This document shows positions 2-11,533 of a stretch of DNA of 11,861 bases, in pieces. The stretch lies in the NCBI GenBank assembly GCA_016933575.1, contig JAFGAR010000059.1:1-11861 (forward strand), written 5' to 3'. Position numbers and translations under genes: made by a program. How positions within the stretch are numbered: the first letter of the stretch is position 1; each line of letters opens with the position of its first letter. Under the pieces are notes generated by a model, which saw only the letters and a program-made list of their open reading frames with translations, had not been told where the DNA came from and did not search any database. The DNA is from Candidatus Thorarchaeota archaeon (GTDB lineage Archaea > Asgardarchaeota > Thorarchaeia > Thorarchaeales > Thorarchaeaceae).

Positions 2-3000
2 CCGAACATCATTCTCTACCATGCAGGAGCTGCAGCGACAAGGTCCGGTCCGACTGCTGCATGGATCGCCAGCTACTGGCATGGGCTGCAGCTCATCAAG
101 CAGAGATCTGGATCAGAGAAGGTGCTATGGATCGACCTTACGGGGGACTTTTCTCAGAGTCGTTTGGCACGAGATCGTCTACGAATCTCTTGTCAGGAAC
201 AGGATGTTCGAGAGATATGGGACCGAATCGAGTGGGTAGGTCTTTCGGGGGGTGTCACTGCTCTGCTCTCAGGAGAATCTTCCATCCCAAACTTGCTATC
301 AGAGCTGGATGCACATCTCGATGCAACAGGCCTCTCAATGATCGTGGTCAGCGGATGGAGCGACCTTGAGGAGTCGACCCCGGAGTTTCGAACGAAGCCT
401 CTCATGAGCATCAAGAAGGCACTTATCGAGTCCATTTCTAGGACTGCCATTCCGGTTCTCTGGTTCATGTCACCAAGAGTATCTGAAGAAACCTCAGTCA
501 TCTACCAGAGTCGTGCATTTGGACCTGTTGATGATATGCTCCTGGATGATAAGGTGGCTGAAACGATCTGGAATCTTCCTGTCAAGCCCTATGCCTTTGG
601 TCAGATAACGCCGTTGTTAGATGACCTGCGTGTCATCATTTGCGAACAAGGAGATGATATCTACCCTGAGCTGGTAGAGGTCCCCCCTCTCAAAGAATGG
701 TCCTCCAGATTCTGGACCCAACAACGGGGTGGAAAGGCATCCTATCAAGGCACGAGAGGGAGGATTGTGCTGGAGGCATCCGATGTGAAGGAGAGCTCCT
801 TCCTCAGAAATGAGATGCTACAGGCAGCTCTTGAGATGGTCCCTCAGCTACGAGCAAAGAGGAAACGAGAGGAGTCCCTGTCAGTCATGATCGAAAAACA
901 ACCCATTAGCACGACTCCGGGCATTCCTTCTCGGTTGATCTATCGTTCATATGGCCATAAGATTGGAATGGGAAAAGGCTATGCAGCATCTACTCAATCG
1001 GTTCCAGCCATATCATTTAGACGAAGATACAGAGTCGATAGCGTTTCAGAGTCTGAGATCAGAGTGACAACGAGAATCCCGCATCTCGCATCCATGCGAA
1101 TGGTTGGGCTTGATCATGACCTTGCTAGAAAGATCGAGCATGAGCGGCTTCACCAGGTACTGGACTTCTTGGCCAACTTAGACTCCGAAAGCAGTGATAC
1201 TACTTCTTTATGGCTCTCGTTCTTATCCTTATTGGAAGAAATCTTAGCCACTTCAAAGGATCCCTCCATGGATTCTGCAGCGATTCCAAGGTTTCTTGAG
1301 ATGCATCCCGTATCCAGCGAGGTCTGGGAGGTAATCTACTGGATACGAGAGAAGACCTTGCTCGATGGTGTGAATCCACGAGAACGACGACTGCTTGATG
1401 TCATACTGTCCCAAGAACCCGCGATTATACAAGAGGTTGGCAACTATCTGCTATTGCTCATTCTTGGCATTTCCCACAAGTATCCCGCTATTGGTACAGA
1501 TGGTATCAAGAGACTCTGGAAAGACGCTTCCGGATGGGTCTTGATGCAGTTGGGTCTTAGGTTCGATAGGCCAGTAGCGTTCAACGTCTGCGCATTATGG
1601 AATTTTCTATGCAAGAGTGCTCGATACTACGGAACGAGAATAGTCGTATCTAATCCAGATACAAAAGGGATCGTGATAGTAGTCGAGGCTCCAGAGAACT
1701 TGAACGACTTCTGGCTATTCATTGAGGAGCCCACCAATACAGATCGCATCTTGAGTGGTGTCTGGCGAGGACTCAATCCCTTCTTTCCAAATGACAAGAT
1801 GCGTTGGGGACTCGTTTCTCATGACGATATCACATCAAGTGCAGCCGCTTGTGATGCTCCATCTGAAGAGTATGGGGTTGTGATACATCATGAGGGTGAT
1901 CAGAGATATCTCTGGATACGTGAGGAGTACACTTGGCAGCTTCTGGGCGAGGTCCAGCTTGTACGACAGTGCAGACAGCTTCTCGATATCCGTGGCATGC
2001 ATATTACTGCTCAACCCGATAGCCACATCCTTCCTCCTCCCGCTAAAGAGGAGGATTCGCACGAGCTGAGGATACGAATTCAAAAGAAGCTCGCGGACAT
2101 AAGGGAAAGGGCCAGAAGAAGAGTTCCCGTGAAGATTCATCTAGACATTGAGAGAAACGACTTTGTTATCATTCTGCTTGAGGACAACCAGGTCTTGGAG
2201 GAAGTGAGGCTCAGGAAGACCGCAGAGATGATCGACTTCCTGCGTATCCCCATTATTCTTCATGGATTATCAACCGATTTCGAGGTGTACAAGGACGCGT
2301 ATACTTGGAACCCATACGAAGATATCGAGTTCGGAGAACTCAAGATCATCCGTCCATTCGTTGAGCGGAGAAATCCCTTTCCTGGGTTTCAATTCACATT
2401 GCCTCGAGATGTCACTGGCTTCTCATCTCTTGAGCAGGAGGAACTGAGGGTTGAGATTACGCATGACAAATCCCTCTGTCCGCTATTCCTAGGTAAGTCC
2501 CTACAACATGATACCTGCTGGAGGATGCAAGTGCATGATGTGATAAATCCATCGCTCGCCCTGCATCTAAGCAAGCGTGTGACCGATCTAGACATATTCA
2601 GGTTACAGGCTGCTGAGGAAATCATCATGGGCAACAAACAATACCATTTGCAGCTCAGATTCACTCCCAATCCCACCTCTCGAGATGGTGTTGTCTTTAG
2701 AGAGAGTGGTAGAATCGCTTGGCAACTAGGGCTGAGAAGGCTCCCAGCTGGGACCTACCTAGAGATGGATCAGGAGAAGCTGGTCTGCGCATTGCAAAAA
2801 CACAAGAACGAGGTCCAATTGATTGTACGATCGAATAAGACCGCTGATCAAGTCTATTCTTGGCTTCTCTTCAAGACAGACTCGAAACCTGATGAGGAGG
2901 AGCTACTTGAGGCATTGGACCAAACTCTTGAAGGGATCGTGGAAACGTATTTTGGAGATAACCAATCTGTAGAAGAGGATGTTTCAGGTTATGAAGAGCT

Positions 3001-3034
3001 AGTATCAGATTTGAGAACAATGATTGAAGACTAA
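2..3034 (+). CDS. Large hypothetical protein (>1010 aa, cut at the window's 5' edge) with a degenerate RecA/RadA-like domain in the visible N-terminal part
   Basis: The frame of the 122..3034 ORF is open back to position 2 (PNIILYHAGAAATRSGPTAAWIASYWHG...EKVLWIDLTGDF), so GTG122 is probably internal. Stop TAA at 3032-3034. Segments VLWIDLTGDFSQSRL, LSMIVVSG and IPVLWFMSP resemble RadA-family core strands. Confidence 0.85.
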   Translation, partial: PNIILYHAGAAATRSGPTAAWIASYWHGLQLIKQRSGSEKVLWIDLTGDFSQSRLARDRLRISCQEQDVREIWDRIEWVGLSGGVTALLSGESSIPNLLSELDAHLDATGLSMIVVSGWSDLEESTPEFRTKPLMSIKKALIESISRTAIPVLWFMSPRVSEETSVIYQSRAFGPVDDMLLDDKVAETIWNLPVKPYAFGQITPLLDDLRVIICEQGDDIYPELVEVPPLKEWSSRFWTQQRGGKASYQGTRGRIVLEASDVKESSFLRNEMLQAALEMVPQLRAKRKREESLSVMIEKQPISTTPGIPSRLIYRSYGHKIGMGKGYAASTQSVPAISFRRRYRVDSVSESEIRVTTRIPHLASMRMVGLDHDLARKIEHERLHQVLDFLANLDSESSDTTSLWLSFLSLLEEILATSKDPSMDSAAIPRFLEMHPVSSEVWEVIYWIREKTLLDGVNPRERRLLDVILSQEPAIIQEVGNYLLLLILGISHKYPAIGTDGIKRLWKDASGWVLMQLGLRFDRPVAFNVCALWNFLCKSARYYGTRIVVSNPDTKGIVIVVEAPENLNDFWLFIEEPTNTDRILSGVWRGLNPFFPNDKMRWGLVSHDDITSSAAACDAPSEEYGVVIHHEGDQRYLWIREEYTWQLLGEVQLVRQCRQLLDIRGMHITAQPDSHILPPPAKEEDSHELRIRIQKKLADIRERARRRVPVKIHLDIERNDFVIILLEDNQVLEEVRLRKTAEMIDFLRIPIILHGLSTDFEVYKDAYTWNPYEDIEFGELKIIRPFVERRNPFPGFQFTLPRDVTGFSSLEQEELRVEITHDKSLCPLFLGKSLQHDTCWRMQVHDVINPSLALHLSKRVTDLDIFRLQAAEEIIMGNKQYHLQLRFTPNPTSRDGVVFRESGRIAWQLGLRRLPAGTYLEMDQEKLVCALQKHKNEVQLIVRSNKTADQVYSWLLFKTDSKPDEEELLEALDQTLEGIVETYFGDNQSVEEDVSGYEELVSDLRTMIED

Positions 3035-3057: not shown

Positions 3058-3106
3058 AAGTGTTAGAAGAAGGTGAGTGAACTTTCTCAGCAACTTCAAA
3101 CTCCCG
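3058..3106. repeat. Left copy of an imperfect 49-bp direct repeat (partner 11685-11733)
   Basis: aagtgttagaagaaggtgagtgaactttctcagcaacttcaaactcccg vs aagtcttagtggaaggtgagtgaaccttctccataaccttcaactcccg: 39/49 identical ungapped, with a perfect 14-bp core gaaggtgagtgaac (3069-3082 / 11696-11709). Confidence 0.85.
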
Positions 3107-3601
3107 ACTTTGTTATTAGATTCCCAGAGGATAGGAAAACTCTCGAAGAGGTTCGACTCAGGGAGACTTCGGATTTGCTGAATTCCGACGTATTTCATTG
3201 GTTGGATATAGAAATGATGTTGAATTACAAGCCAACAATTGAACTCAATATTGGAAGCAAAAGATATTCAGAGAAAGCGAAAGATTGGCATGACTTGCTG
3301 GACTAAGAAAAATAATTCCTGTAATCTATCTAAAAATGAATAAAGAAAGGTTAGTCTGTTCCTTATTGAAACACCGAAATGAAGTTCAACTGATTGTAAA
3401 GTCGGACAAAACACATGATATTATACATTCTAGCTTTCTCTTCGAGATTGATACAAAACTATAGAGCAAGAAATAGTGTTATCTTTAGATAATCATCTTG
3501 AACGAGTTATTGAAGCATACTTTAGTGATATCCATAGTGTAGAAGAGGTAGTTTTGGACTATAGGAATCTATTACCTGATATCAAGAATATAATTCAAGG
3601 A
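3106..3601 (+). pseudogene. Decayed, internally deleted second copy of the C-terminal region of the upstream large gene
   Basis: 3106-3183 DFVIRFPEDRKTLEEVRLRETSDLLN matches DFVIILLEDNQVLEEVRLRKTAEMID (2159-2236). 3267-3458 FRESERLA*LAGLRK..YLKMNKERLVCSLLKHRNEVQLIVKSDKT.. matches FRESGRIAWQLGLRR..YLEMDQEKLVCALQKHKNEVQLIVRSNKT.. (35/64 identical; Trp replaced by TGA at 3291). A frameshift near 3460 is followed by EQEIVLSLDNHLERVIEAYFSDIHSVEEVV, matching EEELLEALDQTLEGIVETYFGDNQSVEEDV. Confidence 0.92.
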
Positions 3602-3615
3602 TCTTGCCAGTTGCA

Positions 3616-4596
3616 TCAGAAGACAAACAGCCCATTGTCAAATGCATAAAGATGGATTGATCTTATCATTGTCAGAGTTAGTAATGCTATCTCTATAGCG
3701 CCCTCCGGATTTATCGTCCATATTTCCGAGGTCTTTTTATCCATACTATGTGTTGCCGCATTCCGAACAGAGCCAATGCCTTCACATAATTCTCTGTGCT
3801 TGTTATCCATCTTTTTTTCACTATAGATTTTCTGAGAGAGTTCAATTATCCCATTTGAATTGGAATCATCAATCCCTATAGATTTACATATTATCCTCAG
3901 ATAGTTTTCAAAAGCTCTTCCTGAGTCGTCTATCGAATGGCGAGGATTTGCTCGATGATTCATCACAGCTGATACAATGTGGTCAATTGATTTATCCAAC
4001 AACCTAAAAGAATAATCTCCAACACGTTGTGCAATATAGGTCCTGATGTTCAATTCACTTTTCATAGCTTCGAGAAGTTCCTCGATAATTTCCACGCTCA
4101 AGGAATTCGTTTTCACTTTGACAAGAAGCTTCCCTTCTTGATTCTGTTCTAATAAATCCGAATAGATACCCCACCCAGATAGGACACGTCTTGTTCTATC
4201 CGCATTCAAACCAATCTCAAACACAGTTGCTGTTTTTCGTCCTGCTTCCTCAAGGGAATCACCTCTTCCAATTTGAGAAACAAACAAGACAAATGGAGGA
4301 TATTTAACAAGAGATCTTCCAAAAACTATGCGATATTGATTCTTTGTAGCTCTTGACACTTCTATGGCACTTTCAGAAATGAAATACCTATCATCTCGCT
4401 TGACTAAAAGGTTCAGCTGAAGAGCACAGGAAAGAGCGCTTCTTGCATACCTCTCTGTTTTTTCCAAGTATTTTGCCAGGAATTTTGTGTCTACTCCTTC
4501 TTCTCGTTTATTCCAGCTAGCTTCCACAGCTTGCATAATTTTATCAGCGGTCACATCCTGAAGTTTATACTCTTGACTATCATTCATATCAATCAA
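3616..4596 (-). CDS. Tandem winged-helix-like module fused to a C-terminal HEPN RNase domain (Abi_C/DUF4145-like)
   Basis: 326-aa ORF (alternative start ATG at 4587, MNDSQ). The C-terminus has a HEPN-like helix SGRAFENYLRIIC and an intact Rx4H motif RNAATH (3748-3765), followed by the helix PEGAIEIALLTLTMIRSI. The N-terminus (VTADKIMQAV..FLAKYLEKTERYARSALSCALQLNLL..Y) resembles the 5491 ORF. It overlaps the stop of the upstream gene. Confidence 0.8.
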   Translation of the reverse strand: MIDMNDSQEYKLQDVTADKIMQAVEASWNKREEGVDTKFLAKYLEKTERYARSALSCALQLNLLVKRDDRYFISESAIEVSRATKNQYRIVFGRSLVKYPPFVLFVSQIGRGDSLEEAGRKTATVFEIGLNADRTRRVLSGWGIYSDLLEQNQEGKLLVKVKTNSLSVEIIEELLEAMKSELNIRTYIAQRVGDYSFRLLDKSIDHIVSAVMNHRANPRHSIDDSGRAFENYLRIICKSIGIDDSNSNGIIELSQKIYSEKKMDNKHRELCEGIGSVRNAATHSMDKKTSEIWTINPEGAIEIALLTLTMIRSIHLYAFDNGLFVF

Positions 4597-5266
4597 TCCT
4601 CAGTTTATCGGATACAGATTTTCCCTCTCGCTCAATGTAGCAAACCAATGCTTCTCTATCAATTGCATATATGTTAGAATGAATCTCGAGCAGAATTATA
4701 TCCTTATCATTTGGAATCTCAAGAATTTTCCTTGTGGTTTTATCGGATTCTGACGAGTCATGAATAAACGTAACAATATCATCAAGTACGGCAATCAATT
4801 TAATCTCTGTCAGTAGGTCAAATAGCGTATTAATACGACATTCTGATGCTTTCTTTCCTGTCTGCGTTTTGAAAGCTTTAGCAATTGAGTCTTTCAACTC
4901 GTTGACATCGAATTTTGGTTTTATCTTTGATTTCAATCTGATGAGAGAGCCTATCCATGATTCCAGAATATGTTTCTGTAATGCCTCTCTTAGATCATTA
5001 TCCGAGGATAGCACCTGAATAAAATCTTCAGATGGTTGATATCTGCTACCTTCAGCTCTTTCCAAGACTCCTATACTTATCCAAAACCCAACACATCTAC
5101 TGACATTGTCGACCGCGAGAGTTACAATAGGAGCGACATCTCTTCTGCTAACCCCCTTTTCTGTTTCTTCGTATATCGCCAGAATGGACTGTATCAACTC
5201 CAGTTGTCTTTCCACACTTACTTTGGCATATGGCAAATCAATTACATCACCTGAATCCTTACTCAC
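4589..5266 (-). CDS. Tandem winged-helix-like protein (subtype II, DUF5343-like in style) with a small C-terminal domain
   Basis: 225-aa ORF with GTG start preceded by GAGGGG. HTH-wing pattern VSRRDVAPIVTLAVDNVSRCVGFWISIGVLER..RYQP and a second unit INTLFDLLTEIKLI. Similar to the 6302 ORF and to the N-terminus of the 7685 ORF. Confidence 0.75.
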   Translation of the reverse strand: MSKDSGDVIDLPYAKVSVERQLELIQSILAIYEETEKGVSRRDVAPIVTLAVDNVSRCVGFWISIGVLERAEGSRYQPSEDFIQVLSSDNDLREALQKHILESWIGSLIRLKSKIKPKFDVNELKDSIAKAFKTQTGKKASECRINTLFDLLTEIKLIAVLDDIVTFIHDSSESDKTTRKILEIPNDKDIILLEIHSNIYAIDREALVCYIEREGKSVSDKLRID

Positions 5267-5405
5267 CTTATTACCCCTCTAATCTAGCACCACTTCAAGA
5301 GCATATTAGAAAGCCAAGAAACCCATATCTTTTTTTTCATGATATCTGCAGAGCAGCATTGTTTCTGATTTAGGAGTCCTTGAATTCTCATGTATTGATT
5401 TATAT

Positions 5406-5436
5406 TTGACATAACAACTTAGTTTCACGTTATAAT
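5406..5436 (+). promoter_or_regulatory. Perfect sigma70-type hexamers TTGACA-N19-TATAAT in the divergent intergenic region (function uncertain)
   Basis: TTGACA at 5406-5411 and TATAAT at 5431-5436, 19-bp spacer. Dyads ataac (5411-5415)/gttat (5429-5433) and aact-t-agtt (5416-5424). Confidence 0.3.
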
Positions 5437-5466
5437 TTAGGGTACAGTGCGTATTAAGTACTACAA

Positions 5467-5477
5467 TATATATATAA
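5467..5477 (+). promoter_or_regulatory. Putative archaeal TATA box for the rightward operon
   Basis: tatatatataa lies about 40 bp upstream of the likely ATG5518 (MSDNQ), which is preceded by gtggt. Confidence 0.45.
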
Positions 5478-5490
5478 GTTTATTAGGCAA

Positions 5491-6342
5491 ATGAAATACT
5501 ATGCACTAGTGGTATTAATGTCAGATAATCAAGAAAGCTTGGAAATAGCCGTTCCGAGTGTGACAATTGAAATAATTGGAAAGGTGGTGAGAGGATTATA
5601 TTCCTTCAAGAAACCGGCAGGATACAAGGATTTGAAGGCATTAGTCAGTCTTCATGAAATCACGGTCAGTCAAGGTCTTAATGCTGCCAAAGATTTAGGA
5701 CTGGCTAAGCAAACTGGAGGTAGGGGTATATATGAATTGACTGAAACTGGAATGAATTTTGCCAGACTTCTAAGTTTTGGAAAGGAATCAGAATGCAGAT
5801 TACTATTAGCAAAGCAGATCATGACCATGAGCAACTGGTCCGAAGTTGTTTCATTTCTTGAAATGAACGTAAATACATCTCGTAATCCACTTGATTTGGT
5901 TATGCATGTTGAAGGGAGACTGGGAAAAATGTGGAAGAATCGTATGCGCTCAAAGGTAGCAAATTCATATCGATCAATATTGGAATATGCGGGACTAATA
6001 GAAATAGACGGGAATGATATTGTTTCAGTACTACCCGATGAAGATGAACAACACAAGTTCCTAGAATCAGAGGCATCTCCGATGAAAAGCCGTGAAAAAC
6101 AACCTCCTGATTCAGGAATCTACTCTTTCTCAATAACACAAGCAAGGATTGAAAGTGATTATTCGGAATTCAGCATTCCCGAGTTCTTCATAGTATTTGT
6201 GAAGAAAACGCAATATGCCATAAAATTCTTTCAAGATCAAATAAAAGATGGGAGCGTCTTCTCAGCATGGCTTGAAACGTTGAAAGTGGGACTAAAAAAC
6301 GATGAGCAAACTGCTATGGAGGTGTATGAGGATATTGAGTGA
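5491..6342 (+). CDS. Tandem winged-helix-like protein (subtype I) with a linker and small C-terminal domain
   Basis: 283-aa ORF (likely true start ATG5518). YKDLKALVSLHEITVSQGLNAAKDLGLA..GIYELTETG is a classic wHTH wing motif, and the second unit is YRSILEYAGLIEIDG. A nearly full-length paralogous pseudogene lies at 6841-7591. Confidence 0.8.
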   Translation: MKYYALVVLMSDNQESLEIAVPSVTIEIIGKVVRGLYSFKKPAGYKDLKALVSLHEITVSQGLNAAKDLGLAKQTGGRGIYELTETGMNFARLLSFGKESECRLLLAKQIMTMSNWSEVVSFLEMNVNTSRNPLDLVMHVEGRLGKMWKNRMRSKVANSYRSILEYAGLIEIDGNDIVSVLPDEDEQHKFLESEASPMKSREKQPPDSGIYSFSITQARIESDYSEFSIPEFFIVFVKKTQYAIKFFQDQIKDGSVFSAWLETLKVGLKNDEQTAMEVYEDIE

Positions 6343-6844
6343 GGACAGACCACCAACATTGGTGCCGACATCGAGTATGAGCTTTGAAAAGCAAATCCTT
6401 ATTCTCAGAGCATATGTTGTTCTGACAAATGATGGGACCGAACCTGTTCACTATAAAGTGGTAATGAACAGAACTGGATTAGCGCGAACTCAAATAGCTG
6501 GTACAAATGCCTTTTTTGTGAGCTTGGGGCTTCTTAGGCATGCTAGTAAGGGAACATATCTTCCCCCTCCTGAAACTGTTCAATTCATTGGCGAAAAACC
6601 TGGAAATGAAGATTATTCCACAATCAGAACGACGCTAGAAAAATCACCGCTGTTTGATTTCATTAGAGAACTAATCAGAATTCATGGTGAAGTCACGATT
6701 GATGATGCTATATCTTTCTTGTTGACTGAATCAGGTGAAAAGACTCGATCTAGAGCAGAACGATCTATTCAATGGTTGGAAAAATGCGGAATTTTAGAAG
6801 TATCTGAGGAGGGGATTCTATCGCTAAGTGGTGAAATACAATGA
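6302..6844 (+). CDS. Stand-alone tandem winged-helix-like protein (subtype II)
   Basis: 180-aa ORF. The likely start is TTG6335 after GGAGGTG (6318-6324), overlapping the upstream stop. LVPTSSMSFEKQILIL..AFFVSLGLLRH..GTYLP aligns with LPYAKVSVERQLELI..GFWISIGVLER..SRYQP of the 5266 ORF. The second unit is SIQWLEKCGILEV. Confidence 0.8.
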   Translation: MSKLLWRCMRILSEDRPPTLVPTSSMSFEKQILILRAYVVLTNDGTEPVHYKVVMNRTGLARTQIAGTNAFFVSLGLLRHASKGTYLPPPETVQFIGEKPGNEDYSTIRTTLEKSPLFDFIRELIRIHGEVTIDDAISFLLTESGEKTRSRAERSIQWLEKCGILEVSEEGILSLSGEIQ

Positions 6845-7591
6845 CAGATGATGACCAAATAACAACAAACAAGCAATGGCATGTATTCATATGGATAATC
6901 AGCTGATAGGAAAAATCTTGCAAATCACATTGGTATGAATGAATCTGAATTTGGTATAACCTTGTCCGATGCATTGGATTTGGATCTGGTTTCAAAAGGA
7001 TTAGAACGAGGCCATTATGTTCTAACTGATGAAGGAAGAAGTTTTGCAATTTTTCCTGGGCATGCGAAGGATGATGATTGTAAAGAAATACTTGGCAATC
7101 CTATTCTTTCGTCTAGAAAATAGAGAACAATTGTCAATCATCTAAACTCCCAAATTGATAATCAAATGCCCATATCTGATTTAGTGGTCTTCGTTGAGCA
7201 AAAGCACAACCGGTCTTGGAGTCGAGGCCGCCGAAGCAAGGCGGAAGGTGCTTATCAAACAATCTTGAGCTATGCTGGACTTGTTGAAATAAAAGATAAT
7301 CTACTCACAACCACTTCCAGAATAATGGAAAACACAGGACTGCCAAAGGGGATTGCTATTTCTGATAGTATCTCCCTGAACACATACCAACTTGGCTTAT
7401 TATCACTAAAGGAGTTGATTCAGAAGAAGAGGAATTCATAATATGCAGAGCTTACCATTCCTGATACTTGTTATATATTCTTAATAATGAGCTTGGAGTC
7501 AATAAATAACCTTAGAGCATTAATCTCAGCAGATGGGTTTATTCATGTCTGGTTAGATGAGCTCTCAAAACACACCAAGAAAATCAATTAA
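6841..7591 (+). pseudogene. Pseudogene paralog of the 5491-6342 subtype I wHTH gene
   Basis: ATG6841 overlaps the previous stop (ATGA). After an early deletion/frameshift one frame reads GMYSYG*SADRKNL..ALDLDLV..GHYVLTDEG..SRK*RTIVNHL..YQTILSYAGLVEI..NS*YAELTIPD..VWLDEL, collinear with GLYSFKKPAGYKDL..AKDLGLA..GIYELTETG..SNWSEVVSFL..YRSILEYAGLIEI..SDYSEFSIPE..AWLETL. Internal stops are at 6896 (TAA), 7121 (TAG) and 7439 (TAA); the final TAA is 7589-7591. It joins the track ORFs 6935..7123 and 7166..7441. Confidence 0.9.
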
Positions 7592-7684
7592 AACTTGATG
7601 ATATTCACGAAATCAAGCTTTATTTGTATCGGATTATCCCATTGTTGATGCTAGACTTGCTCGAATAGATGGTGGTAGGATAGA

Positions 7685-9634
7685 TTGTCCGATAGTAAAC
7701 TAGCAATACCCATTGGAGTTTCAAATTTAGGACTGAAAGGTGTGCTAAAATCTTGGTTCAGGTCCCGAGCACACATCAATCCTCTTACAATAGACGATGT
7801 GGCAAAGAAAACAGCATCAAAAAAGCAGACAATTCAACGACAGATGCCGTTTCTGCTTCAAATAGGGATTCTCGAAAAAACCAATGACACATATCAACTC
7901 ACTGAAGATGGTCGATATGCCGCACAGTATTCTGAATACTCTCAAGATGTAGATTTTGCAGCAACTTTGAACCGTCTTGTTTCAAGGTGGAGTGAAATTC
8001 AGTCGATCTTGGACTATTTGGAGGATGCAAAAGAAGTTCACGTTTCAACCCTGAAAAAGAGGATAATGATGTACTCGGAAAGGGCTCCTACAGATAGGAA
8101 TGTGGAGATGGGTGCTGATGCGCTGATTGATTTATTGACAGAGATAGGAGTCTTGACTAAAATCGAGCATAAAATCAGAATCCTTAGGCGCACGCATCCT
8201 GGAGTGGAACCCGTTACTCCAACTCGCATAGATACTAATGAGATGTGGATAGATTCCATACGAATCAAGAATATCAAGTCCATCATTGATACCACATTCA
8301 CTACAAGAAAGATGAATATCTTCATCGGAGCGAATGGATCCGGAAAATCATCTATATTGCATGCACTTCTATCCCTTCGAAACATCAAATGGGAACGATC
8401 CCATGCGGAAGGAGTATATTCCGAGTTGTTTCTTTTGCAGCGTAAGGGATCTCAAGATTCTATGTATATTGAACTAGAAGGACATGTTCCATCCGAAAAC
8501 GCCAATGATAGATTTGAGTTCAGGGTTACTATCACCCCTGCAATGTCATTTTTCTGGCAACTATGTCTTGAGAGAAACTCGATCGGACTATGCGACACTT
8601 CAATGCTTACCAAAGCCCAAGATTTACGACCTCCATTATCACTCTATAAAGGTCTTGAGCCGATTAAGGAGTTTGTTGAAAAGACATCTCAGGGCATGTC
8701 CCAATTGAATGAAATGTTTCATGGCAATATGGACTTCGATGAATCAGAAAAGTCAAGTTCTGAACCTTTTACGAGTATGATTTCATTTCTAGAAGATAAT
8801 CATGGCAACATTGTACAGAATTTTCAAGAACGAAGATTTCTGACCTCTTGGAATCAAGTACTGCCCGAATTTCTAAGAAACGACGAGTATGAAAATATTC
8901 GATTGAGTTACCTGAAAGTAAGACCTATACTTAGCACCTATATCGACTCATTTGAGTTCGTTCCTGTCCTTAGAGGTTTCCTCAGCACAGAATACGAACA
9001 ACGAAAAGCTCCCTCCGACCGGATTCCAGATGATCTCAACTATGTCTTGTATATTCTGAATAAAATGGTCTACAAAGATGATATTGACCCTCTAAAGATG
9101 GAAAAACTCAAGAGATGGGCTGAGAGATTTGGGATACGTGATTTTGAAGCTGTGATTACACGGGGCCCAAGAATAGAACCCCGCGGATCAATATTTGATG
9201 GAAAGGCAACTCTTCCAGTTTCGTTGTATGGTTTTGGATTAAATCAATCTCTTGCACTGATGGCAAAATGCATTTACTCAGAGGATAATTCGCCAATTTT
9301 AATTGAAGAACCCGAGATACATCTTCATCCAGAATACCAAGCACAAATTGCAGATTTTCTTATTGAATCTATGAAGGAAGGTCATCAGCTTTTCATAGCC
9401 ACTCATTCAGAGCATCTTATCGGACGAATCCAGAGGAGAATTGCGGAAGGAATACTGAAGCAAAAGGATGTACAAATTCTCTGGGTAGTACATGATTCAG
9501 AAAAGGGAACGCAAGTCGAAGAAGTGGAAATGGACGATTCTGGAATCATTCATGAAGGACTTCAATCATATCTGAGCTTTCTGGAGGAGGAAATGCGAGC
9601 AACAGAACGAACTCGTAGAGAGCACAAGGAGTGA
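7685..9634 (+). CDS. N-terminal tandem wHTH-like module fused to an ABC-superfamily ATPase (AAA_15/AAA_21-like) with a DUF3696-like tail
   Basis: 649 aa, TTG start after GGTGGT. IDSIRIKNIKSI, Walker A GANGSGKS (8327-8350), signature variant LYGFGLNQ (~9224-9247), Walker B/D-loop ILIEEPEIHLHP (9296-9331), H-loop ATHS (9398-9409). The first ~165 aa contain DVAKK..FLLQIGILEK..YQLTEDG and DLLTEIGVL. Confidence 0.9.
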   Translation: MSDSKLAIPIGVSNLGLKGVLKSWFRSRAHINPLTIDDVAKKTASKKQTIQRQMPFLLQIGILEKTNDTYQLTEDGRYAAQYSEYSQDVDFAATLNRLVSRWSEIQSILDYLEDAKEVHVSTLKKRIMMYSERAPTDRNVEMGADALIDLLTEIGVLTKIEHKIRILRRTHPGVEPVTPTRIDTNEMWIDSIRIKNIKSIIDTTFTTRKMNIFIGANGSGKSSILHALLSLRNIKWERSHAEGVYSELFLLQRKGSQDSMYIELEGHVPSENANDRFEFRVTITPAMSFFWQLCLERNSIGLCDTSMLTKAQDLRPPLSLYKGLEPIKEFVEKTSQGMSQLNEMFHGNMDFDESEKSSSEPFTSMISFLEDNHGNIVQNFQERRFLTSWNQVLPEFLRNDEYENIRLSYLKVRPILSTYIDSFEFVPVLRGFLSTEYEQRKAPSDRIPDDLNYVLYILNKMVYKDDIDPLKMEKLKRWAERFGIRDFEAVITRGPRIEPRGSIFDGKATLPVSLYGFGLNQSLALMAKCIYSEDNSPILIEEPEIHLHPEYQAQIADFLIESMKEGHQLFIATHSEHLIGRIQRRIAEGILKQKDVQILWVVHDSEKGTQVEEVEMDDSGIIHEGLQSYLSFLEEEMRATERTRREHKE

Positions 9635-10143
9635 TAGGAATGGCTTGTCAAGGGTTGAGAGTCATTCTAGACACATCTGTGTTCGTCTTTTGGTATAATA
9701 GATATGATAATTATCTTGAAATAATGAAGTGTATTCGAGAAGAAGGATTCAAACTGGTGCTTTGCGAAGGATTGAGAAGGGAATATCTAGCAAATCTCTT
9801 TGGTAGATCCACATCTAACTACTATTTGCTTCAAAGAGAGCTCGAAAAACTAAGGATGGAGCAAATCCTTGAATATGCTAATCCTAAGAATAATAACAGT
9901 GTTGTCATCCACGAGGACGACCAGCATGTACTAGATTGTGCACTTACAGAAGATTGTCATGTACATATGATTGTAACAGATAATACGTCTCATTTTCAAT
10001 CCAAATCCGTAAAGTATAACCTACCACTGATTATATCTTCCAAAGAGTTTCAAGAGAAGAACACTTGTCATACCTTTTGCAGCGAAGCAAAAAGAATCTG
10101 TCAAAAAATCATAGAAATTGGTGAGAAGGTAAGATACAGTTGA
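9631..10143 (+). CDS. PIN-domain ribonuclease (VapC/PIN_3-like)
   Basis: 170 aa with GTGA overlap on the ATPase stop (alternative start ATG9640). PIN acidic motifs VILDTSVF, LRREY, HEDDQHVLDCAL and MIVTDN. Confidence 0.85.
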   Translation: MIGMACQGLRVILDTSVFVFWYNRYDNYLEIMKCIREEGFKLVLCEGLRREYLANLFGRSTSNYYLLQRELEKLRMEQILEYANPKNNNSVVIHEDDQHVLDCALTEDCHVHMIVTDNTSHFQSKSVKYNLPLIISSKEFQEKNTCHTFCSEAKRICQKIIEIGEKVRYS

Positions 10144-10291: not shown

Positions 10292-11533
10292 ATGGGATGG
10301 GAGGTGCGCTTGGTGAAACTAAATAAATCAGTGGTAGGAAAAGCAGTCATTTCTATTGTTTTAGTAACTTCCATAGTAGTTATTTGGAATATCTTTCAGG
10401 AACCCTTATCGGATCCGAATCAAGGATTGTACAATGGTTCAGGGGCAAAAGATGCATACTTACCGGAAGGGCGTGTTTACTACCTTTCTGGGGCAGTAAA
10501 TATCACTCAAGATCAAAGCCATCATGTCTATTTATGGTATAATCAATCCGCACTTGGAGATTTGAGATGGGCATATATCGTCTATTACAATGGAACTCAT
10601 AATCCAAACTATGATGGAAACCTAACAACCCCATGGGGGAGTCCGAATCTTGATTGGTGGACTGAAAAGTCATACCTCTTCGCTGATGTGTTTAACAGTA
10701 GTGAGTTTTATCCGCAGCAATACAATATACCAGCTCAAGAACCCGGAACTACAGTGACTTACCAGCTAAGATTCCACATTTGGTCTGAGGGTCAGATGAT
10801 TTACCGCACAGTGAATCAAACTTACACAGTGATATATTCAGACTTGTATATAGAAGCTCAGGAATTATTGCATTCGATTGTTGAATTCTATTTCGTGACA
10901 TTCCCAATAATCATTCTAAGCGTCATGGCTCTCTTTGAAATATCATCTAGGATTGATACTAGTCCTTCTCTTCCAATCATAGATATCAGAGATGCTCCAC
11001 TTGCGAAGCTGGAGAAACCAATACTCGTGGCACGATGTGACAAAATGGAGGATATAAAGAATAATCTCCTGATTCAATCTGCAGCACTCGTCGGGCTTGG
11101 TAGCTTTTGGAGTCTTGTTGGATTTGATATAATCAATGGCATGTTCACATCTTTTGGCAGTATAATTCTAGTTATCCTATCATTTCTTTCAGTAATGGCT
11201 TCAATTCCAGAAATCAATGCTACTGCTTATGATACCGAACTAAGTATGAGTCTACTACCAAGAGGTCAAAATGAACAACAATATGAAAAACAACTTGAGT
11301 ATTTGATCGAACGAAAAGAAAAGGTAAACAAAAATATGAAATCTCTGATGCATTTGGGAGTTGGAGTGTTTGTCGCATCGATTATTGCAGATATCATATC
11401 TCCCATATTCCCATATCACGATAATTTAGCAGGAATATTCTGGTGGCCATATTTCTTCATTTGCGTGATTTATGCAATGCTATGGCTAATGATAATGATC
11501 CTCGACATTATCTTCAGTCTACTCCGAAAATAA
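10292..11533 (+). CDS. Multi-pass membrane protein with a predicted N-glycosylated extracellular domain; function unknown
   Basis: 413 aa (likely start TTG10310 or GTG10313). Basic N-terminus plus hydrophobic anchor AVISIVLVTSIVVIW, then a ~155-aa Tyr/Asn/Gly-rich domain with seven N-x-S/T sequons (NGS, NIT, NQS, NGT, NLT, NSS, NQT), then about five further hydrophobic segments. Confidence 0.85.
   Translation: MGWEVRLVKLNKSVVGKAVISIVLVTSIVVIWNIFQEPLSDPNQGLYNGSGAKDAYLPEGRVYYLSGAVNITQDQSHHVYLWYNQSALGDLRWAYIVYYNGTHNPNYDGNLTTPWGSPNLDWWTEKSYLFADVFNSSEFYPQQYNIPAQEPGTTVTYQLRFHIWSEGQMIYRTVNQTYTVIYSDLYIEAQELLHSIVEFYFVTFPIIILSVMALFEISSRIDTSPSLPIIDIRDAPLAKLEKPILVARCDKMEDIKNNLLIQSAALVGLGSFWSLVGFDIINGMFTSFGSIILVILSFLSVMASIPEINATAYDTELSMSLLPRGQNEQQYEKQLEYLIERKEKVNKNMKSLMHLGVGVFVASIIADIISPIFPYHDNLAGIFWWPYFFICVIYAMLWLMIMILDIIFSLLRK

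Follow-up and report, generated by a model that had tools for sequence, protein, structure and literature searches.

Unlike tandem winged-helix modules beside HEPN and ATPase–PIN genes in a Thorarchaeota locus: three candidate conflict cassettes

Six neighbouring genes of a Thorarchaeota archaeon, here called B to G, each carry a related winged-helix (WH) module, and the question raised by this locus is whether the modules work as pairs of unlike partners and what such pairs would control. The window analysed is the whole 11.9-kb contig (11,861 nt; JAFGAR010000059.1, assembly GCA_016933575.1) of a metagenome-assembled genome. An original prediction sorted the modules into two subtypes, I and II, arranged as three I+II pairs, and proposed a I/II heterodimer or heteropolymer as the working unit, with effectors attached to either partner. 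The reading that we favour, with a probability of about one half, is that the locus holds three separable immune or conflict cassettes, each containing two unlike tandem-WH modules, and that the unlike modules would form the sensing or regulating part of each cassette.

The leftward pair lies on the reverse strand and consists of C (4589–5266, 225 aa), a type II module-only protein, and B (3616–4596, 326 aa), which C precedes with an 8-nt overlap. The N-terminal tandem-WH module of B (4072–4596; type I in the original prediction, and here a family of its own) is followed by a C-terminal HEPN RNase domain of the Abi_C/DUF4145-like kind (3616–4071). The remaining genes are on the forward strand. 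D (5491–6342, 283 aa) is a type I module-only protein of what we call the D/F family, and its end is overlapped by E (6302–6844, 180 aa), a minimal type II module-only protein. The pseudogene F (6863–7591), a type I module protein of the same D/F family, precedes G (7685–9634, 649 aa), in which an N-terminal tandem-WH module (7685–8242; predicted as type II, and again a family of its own) is joined to an ABC ATPase domain of the OLD/NsnB type (8243–9634). The stop of G is overlapped by 4 nt by the start of H (9631–10143, 170 aa), which encodes a PIN RNase. The predicted gene order, II then I-HEPN leftward, and I, II followed by pseudo-I, II-ATPase rightward, is correct, and the peptides quoted in its support are all present in the open reading frames B, C, D, E and G. 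No paralogues of the six modules were found elsewhere in this genome. The stretch between the divergent genes C and D shows no inverted repeat of the operator kind.

All six modules are homologous and have a tandem-WH architecture, with a single alignment spanning both domains (WH1 and WH2) in every one of them. Plain BLASTP among the six links only D with F (1.5e-22) and, marginally, C with G. When family hidden Markov models (HMMs) were built with orthologues, C and E matched reciprocally (1e-5 to 1e-8), and the D/F HMM matched the N-termini of G proteins (1e-9 to 1e-3), the C orthologue (1e-6) and the B orthologue (3e-5). Word-based searches recovered only three homologues of D and none for the B module, and a PDB sequence search with the B family gave no match. 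Across all module families only one column reaches at least 90% conservation, a nearly invariant N-terminal proline. In D this is P22 (about 5554 of the window), located in a short hydrophobic strand; the residue is absent from the B of this genome. The region around it is modelled with low confidence by AlphaFold2 (AF2) and may be a docking peptide.

D (pLDDT 78) and C (pLDDT 80.5) give AF2 models that are laid out alike, WH1 being followed by linker helices, WH2, a disordered linker and, as the tail, a small beta-hairpin/helix element. Only five PDB chains span both WH domains of the two models, namely FokI, N.BspD6I, SspB, 3bhw and BrxA, with VIA-align Z scores of 7.6–10 for D and 6.1–7.2 for C over about 154–191 residues, values which are near the aligner background. 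We propose the fold because the D and C models agree on the same set of PDB chains, and not because of Z; judged from the models, it looks like the bipartite winged helix-turn-helix (wHTH) of the FokI/BpuJI/BrxA/SspB kind. The FokI/BrxA/SspB set has been treated as DNA-sensing bipartite wHTH defence modules (PMC12839542, PMC12065111). Foldseek gave only generic WH matches (SelB, RPC62, MarR), and ScpB, a KITE protein, matches one WH only (Z 5.5); neither kleisin nor coiled-coil SMC was found in the window with Pfam. The G module matches Pfam HVO_A0261_N at 4e-5, its 23.8 bits falling short of the gathering threshold of 35, and no window protein passes the gathering threshold of either PF09821 (AAA_assoc_C) or PF25213 (HVO_A0261_N). 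That of PF09821 is passed by relatives (P0086, 42.8 bits; a 310-aa protein of locus L076, 40.3 bits), including some of type I. A small C-terminal domain apparently shared by C, D and F was dropped as a look-alike of the AF2 models, since tail HMMs and hhalign do not relate the tails of type I to those of type II.

These structural matches bear on a different explanation, namely that each module protein senses or regulates by binding DNA on its own, the genes having become adjacent through tandem duplication and operon packing. Matches to DNA-recognition domains which act as monomers (FokI, BpuJI, N.BspD6I, BrxA) were obtained with both models, as such an explanation would lead one to expect. 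That the modules are acidic to neutral speaks against it.

Two maximum-likelihood trees were calculated, a careful one of 36 modules (LG+C20) and a larger one of 211 modules, of which 175 came from the representative library. Both recover exactly the two clades that the original prediction expected. In the 36-module tree, a branch with 95/95 support splits D, F, B and the two-module proteins from C, E and G; the same split between D, F, B and C, E, G has an SH-aLRT of 98 in the 211-module tree, where type II resolves as (E+C)+G, and type I comprises D/F, the first modules of two-module proteins, and the second modules together with B. Other tests leave the placement of G and B open, however. 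Approximately unbiased (AU) tests reject neither a grouping of G with D/F (p 0.20) nor a place for B in type II (p 0.40). Scored against HMMs built with the family in question left out, C and E fall clearly into type II and D/F lean towards type I, but G comes out slightly nearer type I, with the higher score there in eight of nine sequences, and B is unclassifiable. We therefore regard the binary I/II grouping as the best supported one, although not a secure one. The four families D/F, C/E, G and B are solid, the only firm groupings between individual proteins being D with F and C with E, and it is a robust result that the two modules of every adjacent pair belong to different families. That adjacent partners always come from anciently diverged families, and not from recent duplicates, argues against independent sensors brought together by duplication. 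The cassette model itself does not require a I/II dichotomy; what holds in these loci is that unlike partners are the rule.

The pairs are also maintained in other genomes. C-B, D-E and F-G(-PIN) recur in three other Thorarchaeota genomes, each time beside a giant protein, A, which is likewise the neighbour of the cassettes here. The order is A>D>E>F>G>H on a single strand in CSMAG_407 (locus L007), A>D>E only in E44_bin77 (L005), and H<G<F then C>B in isolate BC (L006; genome G035), where a 278-aa gene and then A follow. A unit is either complete or missing altogether, with D-E, F-G-H and C-B independent of one another, so that the three proposed pairs do behave as units: C-B in G035, D-E in CSMAG_407 and E44_bin77, and F-G-PIN in CSMAG_407 and G035. 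The D orthologues of L007 and L005 are 59% and 44% identical to D, with the E orthologue next in both; the B orthologue of G035 is 51% identical to B and is likewise preceded by a C orthologue; and H follows G in L007 and L006 as well. In eight loci the partner genes overlap by 1–44 nt or lie 2–15 nt apart. C and B overlap by 8 or 4 nt, D and E overlap, and their relatives are similarly spaced. Pairs kept as units with overlapping genes are a further point against modules that act independently. Two other genes of these loci deserve mention. The 278-aa gene downstream of the B orthologue (L006:12222–13058) has a weak module match and a C-terminus which matches the tail of C (E 4e-4), and, on sequence grounds, it may encode a fifth, diverged module protein of that locus. 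In L007, the gene immediately upstream of the A orthologue (L007:2460–4310) encodes a TnpB-like protein of 616 aa, whose TNB domain is Cas12f1-like.

The pseudogene placed at 6841 by the original prediction is a genuine decayed paralogue of D, to which F owes the BLASTP match given above. It can be followed in a single frame over 6863–7591, with in-frame stops at 6896 (TAA), 7121 (TAG) and 7439 (TAA) and about 20 N-terminal residues gone. No frameshift has occurred over about 700 nt despite the three nonsense codons, and the downstream genes G and H are intact. We rejected recoding because the in-frame stops mix TAA and TAG, whereas real genes end in TGA or TAA. Intact F orthologues lie upstream of the ATPase gene in L007 (43% identity) and L006 (34%).

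The effectors of the locus can be recognised to differing degrees. The HEPN domain of B contains the Rx4-6H motif, as R278-x4-H283, which is invariant in three homologues. Its Pfam matches are weak (HEPN_Apea 0.02, its 15.8 bits lying below the gathering threshold of 24.4; DUF4145 0.027 in one homologue), and an Atlas structural search gives TM scores of 0.59–0.72 to Abi_C, DUF4145 and HEPN clusters, those to Abi_C and DUF4145 being 0.67–0.72. An adjacent MNT antitoxin of the HEPN-MNT kind was not seen, there being no NTP_transf match with Pfam; the gene upstream of B is C, a tandem-WH protein. The ATPase of G matches AAA_15 (1.9e-24) and also AAA_21 in Pfam, and its best PADLOC match is NsnB (2.6e-39, residues 189–623), with further matches to AriA, PtuA and GajA. 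Walker A, the GxG signature (YGFG), Walker B (EEPE) and the H-loop are invariant among its orthologues. H matches PIN_3 (2.5e-9), has no extra domain, and retains D14, E51, D97 and D117, which are invariant in three orthologues. Effectors are thus found on either type, as had been proposed, with HEPN on B (type I) and an ABC ATPase on G (type II). Amongst the relatives, type II modules are also fused to an Rce1/CPBP membrane protease (681 aa, L073:8218–10263) and to a complete OLD nuclease, which has both ABC ATPase and Toprim domains (P0119, 717 aa). A weak type I module of another relative has a tail that is possibly deoxyribosyltransferase-like, and HD+GHKL and STAND proteins are also carried or adjoined by relatives.

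PIN and HEPN are classic toxin folds, and in the C-B pair a small WH gene comes first and overlaps the HEPN gene, an antitoxin-like order. The cassettes could on this account be toxin–antitoxin-like addiction modules that stabilise a mobile island, in which the module-only proteins are antitoxins and autorepressors, HEPN and PIN are the toxins, and there is no antiviral sensing. The base composition would suit this too, since GC falls from about 0.47–0.53 in A to 0.35–0.41 downstream, giving a low-GC island that also contains a duplicated end of the flanking gene. We nevertheless think this improbable. The partner to which the PIN gene is coupled is no small antitoxin but an OLD-type ATPase of 649 aa, the links of the relatives to STAND, GHKL-HD, OLD-Toprim and CPBP are typical of defence islands, and no integrase or mobility gene was seen in the window by Pfam scan.

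How general the I+II arrangement is was assessed in 400 Asgard genomes, including 85 of Thorarchaeota, with type I and type II profiles. Among the Thorarchaeota, 7 of 85 genomes were matched with type I and 14 of 85 with type II. Of the 14 other Thorarchaeota genomes matched with type II, only 3 have a canonical type I gene beside the type II gene (G011, G359, G035). Adjacency of I and II as a general rule, which the original prediction had expected, does not hold up: solo type II genes, II+II pairs, I+I pairs and I-I fusions are all found. The II+II pairs combine E-like modules with modules like the G N-terminus (L062, L063), and in L068 and L075 two modules are fused in one protein. Other Asgard families have a two-module protein upstream of a B-like module–HEPN fusion (L036), or one that precedes a module–tail fusion and faces an OLD-type ATPase (L074). 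The more general pattern suggested by these gene orders is of at least two unlike modules per cassette, usually as a module-only protein beside a module–effector fusion.

Some members of the family stand in other company. The solo type II gene of the Thorarchaeota genus g3 is E-like and adjoins that of a conserved 1,054-aa STAND protein (AAA_16+TPR; 66–85% identical between genomes). It lies directly downstream of the STAND gene in L064 (4156–7952), L066 (9615–13457) and L071 (510–4470), and in L067 (4051–8787) the two are neighbours. The I+I pair is in L032 (916–5538), where two tandem D-like genes are followed by a 79-aa open reading frame and then by an 860-aa HD-CE+GHKL (HATPase_c_3) protein, with a HerA/FtsK-like P-loop gene divergent from the tandem genes.

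A profile of all modules matched at least 2,068 representative clusters, 998 of them at E ≤ 1e-10. Among the best 150 representatives the architectures were II (88), I (36), I-I (25) and II-II (2). A scan of metagenome contigs gave one 1.2-kb contig, and a scan of viral contigs gave no match. The common occurrence of solo type II genes is consistent with modules that act as independent sensors, and the I-I fusions (25 of the best 150 representatives) show that two modules can work in cis, with no need of a separate partner. Set against the ancient divergence of adjacent partners and their retention as units, these observations leave independent DNA-binding sensors as a possible account, but a distinctly less probable one than the cassettes.

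In the cassette model, the module-only C stands beside B with its Abi_C-type HEPN RNase, and the module-only F stands beside G, whose NsnB/OLD-type ABC ATPase is coupled in translation to H, the PIN RNase. D-E, as the third cassette, comes after the giant protein A and lacks an effector. Within a cassette, the two unlike modules would bind each other, and probably nucleic acid too, to make up the sensing or regulating part. We infer this heteromerisation because the partners are unlike, because their coupling is conserved and because fusions occur. The module-only partner would then silence the effector or set its specificity, until a cue from an invader frees the RNases, in the case of G-H via the action of the ATPase, and the infected cell is arrested.

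Several points weigh against this picture. The D-E cassette lacks an effector, and F has decayed whilst G and H are intact, so that F may be dispensable. The modules are mildly acidic (pI mostly 5–6.5), which is unusual for DNA binders, and type II frequently stands without type I, in most of the remaining matched genomes; taken together, acidity and the frequent solo type II genes tell against a simple obligate DNA-binding heterodimer. The structural Z scores should be read against a typical best Z of 7–8 for the aligner, PADLOC matches are significant for G only, those of C and D being at chance level, and we know of no defence phenotype for any member.

If unlike modules do pair, the outcome would be a simple rule for immune cassettes, a free module plus a module–effector fusion, in the archaeal lineage closest to eukaryotes. 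A large module family (at least 2,068 clusters), the whole of which is covered by no curated model, would gain a testable handle, one that extends to how OLD-type ATPase/PIN and HEPN effectors are restrained; the two-subtype idea supplies clear pairs for testing in vitro. A bolder and rather doubtful extension is that the modules serve specifically as adaptors for hetero-pairing, in the manner of Nse1/Nse3 KITE pairs or of ESCRT-II, and make up an Asgard-centred family of combinatorial immune adaptors with at least 2,000 clusters at 50% identity. Were this true, a free module would dock on an effector fusion, and any sensor half would fit HEPN, OLD-ABC+PIN, OLD-Toprim or CPBP.

The neighbour of the cassettes, A (2–3034, forward strand), is truncated at its 5′ end, and is followed by a decayed copy of its own C-terminus (3073–3649). 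It has no match in Pfam, PDB or Atlas. Members of the A family are 1,400–2,000 aa long and multi-copy, occurring in 51 of 86 Thorarchaeota genomes and giving as many as 10 or more matches in a genome. A homologue flanks the cassettes in L005, L006 and L007, and a homologue or C-terminal relic is beside them in five loci, with D-E directly after A in L007 and L005. One could suppose from this that the module proteins are accessory subunits of A in a large cellular machine, to which HEPN and ATPase–PIN were added later. We consider this very unlikely, given that most copies of A are without module neighbours, and that in other Asgard families there are module cassettes that lack A. Short decayed copies of the A C-terminus are found, besides that in the window, at L063:17265–17705 and G029:C2:124098–124802, these copies lying either next to module clusters or downstream of A by a few kb. 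Such relics of A 3′ ends flanking the islands fit an insertion hot spot at the 3′ ends of A-family genes better than a functional link. At the other end of the window, after the PIN gene, I (10292–11533, forward strand) encodes a predicted membrane protein of 413 aa without family match, which was not found beside cassettes in the related loci examined.

Of the known systems, Menshen (NsnABC) resembles the F-G-H cassette in that NsnB is the best PADLOC match of G, a GxG signature replaces SGG, and a PIN-fold protein is encoded next; moreover, Menshen sensors often carry tandem wHTH pairs resembling FokI/BpuJI (PMC12065111). The window proteins differ in having no DUF262/ParB or NsnA match (Pfam, PADLOC), and DUF3696 was not reported in the window by Pfam. 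Here a wHTH pair occurs both as part of the ATPase protein and as the product of a gene of its own, and H keeps its D-E-D-D residues and has no C-terminal nuclease, whereas NsnC combines an inactive PIN with a nuclease. The dyads of an OLD-type ABC ATPase and a nuclease (PARIS AriAB, Septu PtuAB, Gabija) likewise couple an AAA_15/AAA_21 ATPase translationally to a small nuclease gene, and dyads with a PIN partner have been noted (PMC12839542). In the present locus, by contrast, the ATPase protein has a tandem-WH module at its N-terminus and is preceded by a conserved module-only partner, F, and the nuclease, H, is a PIN protein rather than Toprim or HNH. Neither the Toprim/DUF4435 partner of PARIS nor any Toprim match is seen in the window with Pfam.

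BrxA, SspB and FokI/BpuJI/N.BspD6I cover both WH domains of both models and also come from a defence context. They show no sequence similarity to the modules, the Z scores being only 6–10, and BREX, Ssp and restriction genes are not nearby; Pfam and PADLOC scans found no methyltransferase, PglZ, BrxC or restriction nuclease domain in the window. The arrangement here is instead one of unlike pairs bearing RNase or ATPase effectors. With the AbiJ/Abi_C HEPN proteins (PMC3710099), B shares an N-terminal HTH-type region and a C-terminal HEPN domain with Rx4H, and its Atlas neighbours carry Abi_C, AbiJ_NTD4 and DUF4145. The N-terminus of B differs in being the tandem-WH module common to five neighbours, and B has a dedicated upstream partner, C. 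The HEPN–WH pair of the type IX retron Kva2, in which a WH protein wraps around a HEPN nuclease and silences it until a cue from a phage arrives (bioRxiv 10.64898/2026.07.14.738597), offers a parallel for the proposed restraint of B. Unlike that system, the present locus has no retron reverse transcriptase or msDNA, and the WH protein of Kva2 consists of two alpha/beta domains and one HTH, with no homology detected. The closest arrangements are therefore Menshen and the OLD-ABC+PIN dyads for F-G-H, and the AbiJ-like HEPN proteins for B.

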